Shown here piece by piece: positions 15,958 to 16,954 of a DNA stretch of 64,000 bases. The position numbers and the translations under genes are program-made. The DNA is from a phage: assembly GCA_018995085.1 (NCBI GenBank), contig GCA_018995085.1_3936.1; one strand, 5' to 3'. Positions within the stretch are counted from its first letter, which is position 1, and every line of letters starts with the position of its first letter. Below the pieces are notes generated by a model, which worked only from the letters and a program-made list of their open reading frames with translations, ran no database searches and had not been told where the DNA came from.

Positions 15958-16048
15958 GTTTTGACAGAAGACCAATTACAGCAAACTTAATCTTATTCAT
16001 CTGAAGGTAAATCGGACAAAGAAGAGATTTGGTCTGGTCATTAAGAAT

Positions 16049-16125
16049 TGCGGGTATAGAGAAAGGGCGTCTCACATGTCTCATTAGCATGGTATCGGCA
16101 GGTTCGACTCCTGCACCCGCCTCCA
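16049..16125 (+). tRNA. tRNA with CAU anticodon (Met, fMet or Ile2 undetermined)
   Basis: T-arm GCAGGTTCGACTCCTGC, loop CTCATTA with unusual position 37, 1:72 mismatch. Confidence 0.45.
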
Positions 16126-16208
16126 AATTTACAGAAGACCGTTTACAGCAACATTTATTAAATTTTTAGCGGAAAAATTGAAAGATACGGTCTGGTAATA
16201 CTAAACAT

Positions 16209-16285
16209 GGTTAGGAAGCACATAAGGTATGTGCGGTCGCCTGTTAAGCGAATGGCACAGGGTTCGAATCCCTGACTAACCGCCA
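16209..16285 (+). tRNA. tRNA-Asn (anticodon GUU)
   Basis: loop CTGTTAA, T-arm CAGGGTTCGAATCCCTG, CCA encoded. Confidence 0.6.
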
Positions 16286-16354
16286 AATTTAGGAGAGAAG
16301 CGATTGCTCACCGATTTGTAAGGTGCAAGTCCTTAGCCTGAATAGAAATTAAAT

Positions 16355-16442
16355 GTGTCGTTATCCCGTAGATGGTAGCGGTGGGGACTGTAAATCCCTT
16401 GTCATTGAGACTCGGTAGGTTCGACTCCTACACGGCACACCA
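16355..16442 (+). tRNA. tRNA-Tyr (anticodon GUA), long variable arm
   Basis: loop CTGTAAA, 88 nt, T-arm GTAGGTTCGACTCCTAC. Confidence 0.65.
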
Positions 16443-16447
16443 ATAAA

Positions 16448-16525
16448 GGTTATGTAGTTTAATCTGGTTAAAATACTCCCCTGTCACGGGAGATGATGAG
16501 GGTTCAAATCCCTTCGTAACCGCCA
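16448..16525 (+). tRNA. tRNA-Asp (anticodon GUC)
   Basis: anticodon stem CTCCC/GGGAG, loop CTGTCAC. Confidence 0.65.
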
Positions 16526-16724
16526 ATTTTGAGAGGGCTATTTAGCCCCTCCCTTAAAGAGTTCTTACGAGTATTCTTTAAAGGAGCAGAAGGCCAAATA
16601 CAGCAAGAATGTATGAAATTTCAAGCCAATTTAATTTTGAAAATTTAAAACTTGGTCTGGCTCAACAAATTTACAGAAGACCGTTTACAGCAAAACTTAA
16701 ACAATCTATTTCTCCGGTAAAGAA

Positions 16725-16790
16725 AAGGCGAAGGTTCGATTCCTTCACTCGGCAGATGTCGAGTTGGTGTAATGGTAGCACTTAAGATGA
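16725..16790 (+). other. tRNA half-fragments in inverted order (3' half followed by 5' half)
   Basis: AAGGTTCGATTCCTTCACTCGGCA directly precedes GTCGAGTTGGTGTAATGGTAGCAC; the two acceptor strands are mutually complementary. Confidence 0.35.
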
Positions 16791-16954
16791 TAAACAACGG
16801 TCTGGTAATTATCTTTGTAGATAAGTTATTAAGCTTACCTGTGAGTATGCGACCACAAAGGGTGAATGGGTAAATTCTAGATTTAAACCCAAAAAGGCAC
16901 ATCGCTACAGACCTTAAGCAAGTCTGGGTAGCTTATCTACAAAGATAATTTAAT

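Follow-up and report, generated by a model that had tools for sequence, protein, structure and literature searches.

Y RNAs are encoded within 4 kilobases (kb) of a Ro60 gene, on the same strand, and mimic transfer RNA (tRNA) (PMC4201824), and in the Thermus phage phiLo the Ro60 protein binds the adjacent RNAs Yrl1 and Yrl2, as seen by electrophoretic mobility shift assay and cryo-electron microscopy (PMC12135203; PDB 9KOP, 9L5Y). The Class I RNAs of Dictyostelium are about 60 nucleotides (nt) long, with a 6-base-pair (bp) terminal stem that carries compensatory changes, an AAG start, a CUGU end and an unpaired 11-nt motif, CCTTACAGCAA, after the 5′ strand; Kjellin et al. 2021 described them as restricted to dictyostelids, and the sole demonstrated direct binder of a Class I RNA in Dictyostelium is the RNA recognition motif (RRM) protein Rnp1A (PMC7919456). 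Here we describe four spacer elements, units A to D, in the tRNA array of a 64,000-nt stretch of phage DNA (the window; GenBank assembly GCA_018995085.1, contig GCA_018995085.1_3936.1). The four units are probably Y-RNA-like small RNA genes, partners that travel with phage Ro60-like (DUF2828/DUF7788) genes, and in architecture they resemble bacterial Y RNAs and, unexpectedly, the Dictyostelium Class I RNAs.

The first unit starts 332 nt and the last 1041 nt after the stop codon (15630) of a Ro60-like gene, all of them on the strand of that gene (Table 1). Their minimum free energy (MFE) folds are common to all four: the 5′ and 3′ ends pair, an outer 4-bp helix is followed by an AGA/G internal loop and a 7-8-bp helix, a single-stranded (U/A)UACAGCAA stands immediately 3′ of the 5′ strand, and an unpaired G follows the 3′ strand, with a 3′ CUG shared throughout. 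An earlier sequence-only reading of the window had noted partly complementary ends in these spacers, and the complementarity is real and covaries between units. The inner helix reads AGACCAA/TTGGTCT in unit A, AGACCGT/ACGGTCT in B, AGGCCAA/TTGGTCT (one G-U pair) in C and AGACCGTT/AACGGTCT in D, and the outer helix covaries in the same order as TGAC/GTCA, TTAC/GTAA, GAGC/GCTC and TTAC/GTAA. The complementarity of both helices is unit-specific, which fits pairing within a unit and not around the tRNAs, and leader-trailer stems enclosing the tRNAs were ruled out, since the extended pairing (CCAA/TTGG versus CCGT/ACGG) fits only within units. The same reading had called for covariation and conservation across related phages and for a genome-wide copy count. 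The units are kept in order, with compensatory changes, in three Ounavirinae genera; four copies stand at fixed syntenic positions, all on one strand, in each genus examined; and neither the window nor the complete genome (87.1 kb) of the closely related phage Bas63 contains any copy beyond these four. Unit A has orthologs in every Ounavirinae locus examined, and the outer helix of unit B covaries among its orthologs (TTAC/GTAA versus TTGC/GCAA).

The same module lies on the strand of a Ro-like gene, adjoining it, in five other phages, as identified by eye and with a descriptor: Aeromonas phage 4_4572 (at least six tandem units upstream of the gene), Mycobacterium phage Itos (three units, the middle one tRNA-like, without a flanking tRNA), Campylobacter phage F370 (two units), Listeria phage VAfA18 (three units) and Bacillus phage Tsamsa (three units, one tRNA-like). 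The descriptor called for a stem of 7 or more bp in which no more than one pair is G-U, a junction of 0-3 nt, CAGCAA, an interior of 18-115 nt and a G directly after the 3′ strand. When 75 diverse IMG/VR loci, each encoding a 39-47% identical Ro-like protein, were surveyed, the descriptor matched 61 times on the gene strand and 3 times on the complementary one, with at least one strict match in 42 loci and most matches no more than 500 nt from the gene. Background was 3 matches in 128 kb for the window and about 1 in Markov simulations, while one-mismatch variants of CAGCAA in loci without a strict match amounted to noise (23 on the gene strand versus 20 on the other). Linked units occur both upstream and downstream of Ro-like genes across very different phage lineages, and in many IMG/VR loci the module sits beside the Ro-like gene without a flanking tRNA.

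Several features that the descriptor does not impose are conserved among 77 distinct units, namely G at -9 in 88%, U at -2 in 85% and C at -2' in 87%, along with A at -10, R at -8 and a run rich in A ahead of the 3′ strand. CAGCAA always stands 10 nt from the first base of the stem, and the phage-wide consensus of a unit reads AAG...YCUGU. For a covariance model (R1), 42 units were taken exclusively from phages outside the Ounavirinae, and all 7 stem pairs vary on both sides among these units, a set selected for pairing. The top four R1 matches in the window are unit B (39.1 bits; expectation value, E, 5e-7), unit A (31.3 bits, E 4e-5), unit C (16.1 bits, E 0.24) and, fourth best at 14.0 bits, the 5′ part of unit D. 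Searched against the complete Bas63 genome, R1 finds the same four units and nothing else above noise, with the ortholog of unit C reaching 28.3 bits (E 3e-4).

Comparison with the Class I RNAs revealed a resemblance that is well supported and appears to be previously unreported; no paper connecting Class I RNAs to phages or to Ro60 was found in the literature. No Rfam family reaches its gathering score on the units in permissive-threshold scans, and RF01414 (Dicty_Class_I_RNA) is the only family that repeatedly matches the short units and gives their best Rfam scores, as high as 29.6 bits among seven units of Aeromonas phages. Its consensus, GaUcuC-CUUACAGCAA-(A/U-rich)-(A-rich)-GagAuC-UG, equals the phage module. 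A second covariance model (R2), built from 30 Dictyostelid Class I RNAs of six species (supplement of PMC7919456), was searched against 695 kb of phage loci and returned 33 matches at E<=1, all 33 on the strand of the Ro-like gene and on or beside units; the best phage match scored 40 bits (E 6e-7), and the top match in the window was unit B (15.8 bits, E 0.09).

The likeness extends to individual positions. A stem joins the 5′ and 3′ ends in both groups, with 7-8 bp and four different sequences in the window compared to about 6 bp in Class I, and is directly followed on its 5′ side by a single-stranded motif, CCUUACAGCAA in Dictyostelium and (U)UACAGCAA in phages. Measured against the 11-nt CCUUACAGCAA, the window units (UUACAGCAA in A, B and D, AUACAGCAA in C) agree at 8-9 of 11 nt, and the near-invariant Class I positions T3, C6, C9, A10 and A11 are all matched. 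Both groups have a variable, A/U-rich interior whose 3′ part is rich in A. Window helices start with (G)AAGAC or AAGGC and end with GGUCUG-G, so that AAG and CUG are present and the last base is G instead of the Class I U. Lengths are 42-65 nt for Class I and 59-69 nt for the cores of the short units, with 127 nt for unit D, and T-arm-like hairpins of the GGUUCGAUCC type occur in the Class I RNAs asu_can_20 and ppa_can_99. There are also differences: Class I RNAs are transcribed from eukaryote genes with a Dictyostelium upstream sequence element (DUSE) about 60 nt upstream, whereas the phage units lack a DUSE and lie in a sigma-70-type operon; the phage RNAs have 1 nt less from the conserved G to CAGCAA; the window units carry the extra outer 4-bp helix and AGA/G loop; and Class I RNAs have been reported from Dictyostelia only, with no reported link to a Ro60-like protein.

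It is tempting to see in the phage units and the Class I RNAs one ancient RNA class, in which the stem, UUACAGCAA and CUG would form the recognition element for DUF2828/DUF7788-type Ro60-like proteins, though we hold this tentatively and lean slightly to the other side. Should it be true, a second Ro60 lineage would have the Class I RNAs as its Y RNAs, these would not be a Dictyostelium invention tied to multicellularity, and a single protein-docking scaffold would come with two kinds of interior, the tRNA mimic of YrlA type and the short RNA of Class I type. The DUF2828/DUF7788 proteins are spread over phages, giant viruses and eukaryotes, with family members in giant viruses of protists and a eukaryotic distribution listed by Pfam. 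The Class I RNAs, reportedly treated earlier by Aspegren 2004 and Avesson 2011, are abundant and their function has been open since 2004; the link raised here suggests that they may be Y-like RNAs of a Ro60-like protein.

The gene upstream of the units encodes a protein predicted to have the Ro60 fold. Its open reading frame (ORF) matches Pfam DUF2828 and DUF7788 and PHROGs phrog_850 ('RNA-binding protein'), and its stop codon is followed by the first tRNA after 166 nt. An AlphaFold model of the protein (predicted local distance difference test 85.8) was compared with the PDB, and the nine best matches were all Ro60, Rsr or TROVE proteins, including a phage TROVE protein, over the full length (template modelling scores 0.5-0.68, E down to 2e-8). 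Only this fold comparison showed Ro60: single-sequence and profile searches of the PDB gave no match, and NCBIfam gave none either. The protein is 34% identical to a mycobacteriophage 'Ro-like RNA binding protein' and 97% identical to gp130 of Bas63 (JohannRWettstein, MZ501086), which is Ro60-like and counters the ppl defence, also when moved into T7 (PhageMaP preprint, PMC11482910). The Y RNAs of gp130 were only conjectured in that study (PMC11482910). The units supply candidate RNA partners for a phage Ro60-like protein known to counter ppl in a near-identical phage, and these candidates lie in unannotated spacers and are not, as had been guessed, the annotated tRNAs.

Some of the candidate RNAs lie partly beneath two small minus-strand ORFs of Bas63, bas63_0137 and bas63_0138, which together (locus L098 38749-39023, equal to Bas63 82748-83022) overlap units C and D and the inverted-repeat RNA described below. 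Both ORFs are probably annotation artefacts, and knock-out phenotypes assigned to them would report on the RNAs.

Likeness to the bacterial YrlA RNAs (RF02553) is seen in the distance of no more than 4 kb to a Ro60-fold gene on the same strand and in the paired 5′ and 3′ ends of all four units. Unit D goes further, with an interior that folds by MFE into a cloverleaf-like four-way junction in the order V arm, T arm, closed acceptor-like stem-loop and D arm, as in YrlA, whereas units A-C lack a tRNA mimic. Its T-loop is GGTTCGA, its D-loop contains GG, and YUAY (CUAU) precedes the V arm. All helices of unit D are recovered by RNAalifold on eight orthologs, and four pairs, one of the V arm and the other three of the acceptor stem, have changed on both sides and still pair. 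The acceptor stem covaries across three phage genera, with ACACG/CGTGT in Mooglevirus KMM2, Silverhawkium, Sf13 and Suspvirus and ACCCTTC/GAAGGGT, then GCCA, in Moogle and Michonne. The Rfam tRNA model gives a partial match at 16697-16747 (22 bits), and ARAGORN calls no tRNA within the units. Long tRNA-like units in other phages reach 38.9 bits (E 5e-5) and 39.2 bits (E 4e-5) against RF02553, below the gathering score of 69 bits; the 38.9-bit unit re-scanned alone gives E 1.7e-7. In these units the T, acceptor and D arms align with the model and the outer stem does not. A functional permuted tRNA gene was considered and rejected, as ARAGORN does not accept unit D re-permuted with an artificial anticodon loop and a loop of 4 nt closes the acceptor stem. 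Unit D mimics a tRNA without being a gene for one.

Among tRNA-like units more generally, the loop closing the acceptor often starts N-CCA (ACCCTTC-GCCA-AACA-GAAGGGT), as in L003 (Moogle), L048 5422-5545, L058 5528-5636 and L084 5795-5918 and 8484-8607. With such a loop, RNase P cleavage and 3′ trimming could give a two-piece tRNA-like molecule with a free CCA end. A third interior module, ...GAACCTTTCTGGAGGGGAAAGCAAAAACTCGCCAAA, neither tRNA-like nor short, is found within the same terminal scaffold at L019 3276-3371, L020 3133-3233, L023 149-281, L027 1265-1374 and L037 3734-3829, several of these on contigs of more than 200 kb.

The presumed protein-binding module is where the units part from the described Y RNAs: an AGR-stem, UUACAGCAA and a 3′ G take the place of the GNCGAAN0-1G stem of YrlA, and the phage partner protein is of the DUF2828/DUF7788 type and not Pfam TROVE. 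The phiLo system is similar in that a phage Ro60-fold protein has at least two neighbouring Y-like RNA genes, and 9KOP is among the structural matches of the window protein; it differs in that its RNAs, unrelated in sequence as judged by the description in that paper, are chosen by a CGAA motif in a bulge and are not set in a tRNA array. Metazoan Y RNAs are likewise small RNAs in which a terminal stem made from the ends holds the protein site alongside a variable internal module, but their binding helix is GGUCCGA with a bulged C, their genes are transcribed by RNA polymerase III and they lack CAGCAA. The units are probably a kind of Y RNA attached to a second lineage of Ro60-like proteins, and because the recognition module is unlike the classical Y RNA motif, the family was missed by Rfam and TROVE-based searches. 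They define a strand-specific family of small RNAs that is widespread among very different phages and goes with Ro-like genes of the DUF2828 type. The phage examples of permuted tRNA mimics in tRNA arrays bear on the protecting or policing of phage tRNA pools.

The window itself is assigned, by sequence, to a Felixounavirus (Felix O1-like, Ounavirinae), with more than 150 Escherichia and Salmonella phage records matching 15600-17300 at 95-99% identity. It contains 25 tRNA genes called by ARAGORN, all on the plus strand between 15796 and 21372. A consensus scan places the next strong predicted promoter after the two in Table 1 at 17204, and a scan for internal terminators found none, so a single promoter-to-promoter interval contains the four units and nine tRNAs and the units are probably part of the tRNA precursor. 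The proposal that the spacers encode small stable RNAs co-transcribed with tRNAs is partly supported and is the reading favoured here, with syntenic conservation and compensatory changes on its side, together with the shared promoter interval, the strand-specific Ro60-linked family and the tRNA mimic of unit D. The units would be transcribed with the tRNAs from the promoters at 15649 and 15740 and freed by RNase P and 3′-end processing of the neighbouring tRNAs. By analogy with Ro60 and Y RNA, the stem, UUACAGCAA and 3′ G could be the docking site for the ring-shaped Ro60-like protein, with the variable interiors acting as adaptor, gate or tether modules, and the tRNA-shaped interior of unit D could engage tRNA-binding enzymes. 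Jointly, the units may direct the RNA-surveillance or anti-defence activity of the Ro60-like protein.

Several observations weigh against this reading. Docking of the protein on the units is proposed from genomic linkage and by analogy. No strict descriptor match occurs in 33 of the 75 Ro-like loci; RF02553 gives no match in the window at E<=10, unit D included; and the Ro-binding motif GNCGAAN0-1G or GGUCCGA is absent from the terminal stem of the window units, whose 5′ stem strands read ACAGAAGACCnn, the only GGCGAAG being at 16727-16733, the V/T junction of unit D. The RF01414 matches in the window (19.7 bits for A, 17.1 bits for B) are below the gathering score of 41.5. Salmonella phage FG1m is viable despite the loss of units C and D. 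Finally, gp130 by itself, whether supplied on a plasmid or carried by T7, is enough to rescue T7 on ppl (PMC11482910), and its anti-ppl activity is therefore independent of phage RNAs.

The sufficiency of gp130, the loci without a strict match and the binding of a Class I RNA by an RRM protein all agree with the best-surviving alternative, that the units are real Class I-like RNAs independent of the Ro60-like protein, perhaps binding a host protein or RNA as decoys or regulators, and that the linkage reflects only shared early expression or a shared counter-defence function. We regard this as unlikely, since the linkage is tight, strand-specific and short-range across very different lineages and on both sides of the gene, and the parallels with Y RNAs (terminal stem, adjacent conserved single strand, optional tRNA mimic) as well as the binding of adjacent Y-like RNAs by the Ro60 of another phage (PMC12135203) would be left aside.

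The placement of the units, which start 4-6 nt after the preceding tRNA and end about 10 nt before the next one within a single transcription unit, would also suit cis-acting processing or punctuation hairpins that guide RNase E, III or P cleavage of the polycistronic tRNA precursor. Processing signals had been suggested by the sequence-only reading and are possible as a side role, but such a role does not explain the module beside Ro-like genes outside tRNA arrays, as in Mycobacterium phage Itos and the IMG/VR loci above. The units are present at only 4 of about 25 tRNA junctions, C and D adjoin directly without an intervening tRNA, and cleavage guidance has no need for a conserved tRNA mimic within unit D, so that we consider it distinctly improbable as their main function.

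Decaying tRNA pseudogenes, left by duplication and deletion in an array of a kind that gains and loses tRNAs, could account for the permuted tRNA-derived arms of unit D but hardly for the rest: units A-C contain no tRNA-like sequence, the stems and the acceptor-like stem stay paired through compensatory changes, and the terminal module is kept between phages without nucleotide similarity, all of which makes this origin very improbable. Equally hard to credit are mobile repeats resembling miniature inverted-repeat transposable elements, as had been raised by the sequence-only reading, or recombination sites shuffling tRNA cassettes. Conserved ends around variable interiors, in an array with HNH homing endonuclease genes and a tRNA content that varies among relatives, would speak for them, but the units keep fixed syntenic positions on a single strand without dispersed copies, have no target-site duplications, and the indels among relatives do not match unit ends.

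Readings of the spacer motifs as promoters or terminators were rejected, since TTGACA/TTTACA overlaps the 5′ motif but has no -10 element at usable spacing and there are no T-runs, and self-cleaving ribozymes (hammerhead, hepatitis delta virus-like/theta, twister, pistol, hatchet) were considered for the units with nothing found.

Table 1. Positions of the features of the window discussed in the text
Feature	Positions	Strand	Parts	Basis
Ro60-like protein gene, 471 amino acids	14215-15630	+	TROVE-like helical ring and vWA domain	
Two predicted sigma-70-like promoters, upstream of the tRNA/small-RNA cluster	15649-15677, 15740-15769	+		Consensus scan
Unit A, putative short Class I / Y-like RNA	15962-16040	+	Helix 15969-15975 / 16029-16035; AGA/G internal loop; UUACAGCAA at 15976-15984; 3′ G at 16036	MFE fold, descriptor match, R1
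Unit B, putative short Class I / Y-like RNA	16129-16198	+	Helix 16136-16142 / 16187-16193; UUACAGCAA at 16143-16151; 3′ G at 16194	MFE fold, R1, R2
Unit C, putative short Class I / Y-like RNA	16584-16663	+	Helix 16591-16597 / 16652-16658; AUACAGCAA at 16598-16606; 3′ G at 16659	MFE fold, descriptor, R1
Unit D, putative long YrlA-type RNA	16671-16808	+	Helix 16678-16685 / 16796-16803; CAGCAA at 16688-16693	MFE fold, RNAalifold on 8 orthologs
Unit D 'anticodon stem', 5 bp	16695-16699 / 16782-16786	+	CTTAA/TTAAG; leads back to terminal helix	
Unit D V arm	about 16713-16727	+		MFE fold
Unit D T arm	16730-16746	+	GAAGG-TTCGATT-CCTTC	MFE fold
Unit D acceptor-like stem, 7 bp	16747-16753 / 16758-16764	+	ACTCGGC / GTCGAGT; 4-nt loop AGAT	
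Unit D D arm	16767-16781	+	GTGT-AATGGTA-GCAC	MFE fold
Conserved structured RNA, about 145 nt	16806-16954	+		Inverted repeat, RNAalifold on 8 orthologs

The recurrent motifs from which the spacers were first recognized were re-examined by position. The 5′ motif ACAGAAGACC(G/A)(T/A)TTACAGCAA exists, with 3 matches at up to 3 mismatches and 0 in 100 shuffles, and starts at 15964, 16131 and 16673, the positions first given (15965, 16133, 16675) being off by 1-2 nt; a fourth copy, GCAGAAGGCCAAATACAGCAA at 16586 in unit C, had been overlooked. The 3′ motif GGTCTGGT(A/C) is found at 16031, 16189 and 16799, while the copy reported at 16633 was misplaced and the fourth, GGTCTGGC, is at 16654; taken alone this motif is not significant (0.62 expected). 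The site at 18905, put forward as a variant, has only GAAGACCGT in common and is not a member of the family, because it has neither CAGCAA nor a 3′ partner, belongs to another hairpin-rich spacer and gives no R1 match. This spacer of about 85 nt between tRNA-Thr and tRNA-Val (18868-18963) is closed by GAGGTC/GACCTC, is near-identical in Mooglevirus and represents a separate candidate small RNA containing the 18905 site.

Directly after unit D, the long inverted repeat that had been pointed out is real, with 22-nt arms (16807-16828 and 16929-16950) that are 95% complementary and 100 nt apart, although the exact strings begin at 16814 and 16932 and not at 16815 and 16935. The conserved structured RNA that it bounds is closed by a 20-24-bp stem and has 50 predicted pairs, of which 11 are changed on both sides among eight orthologs. 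Nothing in Rfam matches it. The inner hairpin, CAGACC-UUAAGCAA-GUCUGG, is similar to a minimal unit, and the whole element may be a fifth partner RNA. Salmonella phage FG1m (L097) carries a natural deletion of this RNA, units C and D and the tRNAs Met, Tyr and Asp, with units A and B retained.

Ro-like genes adjoin phage tRNA arrays in unrelated lineages, including Campylobacter (L010), Bacillus (L012), Listeria (L011), L018 and L034. Within the Ro-like gene 5′ leader of Vibrio phage ValKK3 (L009 2464-2500), about 20 nt before the start codon, stands AGACATTT-TA-CAGCAA, and this leader motif could serve autoregulation. The Listeria locus encodes an RtcB-like ligase 1.2 kb downstream, and in a P100-like Listeria phage the 2 kb upstream of the Rsr-like gene include three non-coding regions with high transcription (PMC12282133). 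The sole published range of such regions in Listeria phage CKA15 (26,236-26,727) misses the three units (25,214-25,573) and maps onto a ROOL RNA (RF03087), which in VAfA18 (L011 927-1478, approximately CKA15 26,195-26,746) lies between a tRNA and the Ro-like gene and scores 89.8 bits (E 9e-17) against a gathering score of 99.1. By coordinate transfer this ROOL RNA equals the most highly transcribed non-coding region of CKA15, left unexplained in the CKA15 multi-omics paper.

The tRNA array of the window has several further features. Between units A and B, 16049-16125 is called tRNA-Met(CAT) by ARAGORN, but the Rfam tRNA model gives no match there and only tRNA-Sec scores (15.9 bits); this atypical tRNA is kept in relatives. 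Conversely, 17437-17515 scores 31.7 bits as an Rfam tRNA, above the gathering score, without being called by ARAGORN, and relatives annotate tRNA-Arg(TCT) at this place. The stretch 18018-18100 looks tRNA-like by eye: its acceptor stem has 7 bp (ATGGGAC/GTCCCAT), and both a T arm (GGGGTTCAACTCC) and G-CCA are present. It is called by neither ARAGORN nor Rfam. Over 17189-17436, the strong promoter at 17204 (TTGACA-17-TATAGT) is followed by about 200 nt of non-coding sequence, with weak matches to permuted transfer-messenger RNA (tmRNA; RF04321, 29.2 bits) and tmRNA (RF00023, 17.2 bits), and then by tRNA-Arg. Finally, a small HNH endonuclease ORF (17533-17880; weak Pfam HNH match) is situated within the array, and the HNH genes of relatives occupy differing array positions, which is consistent with homing-driven indels.

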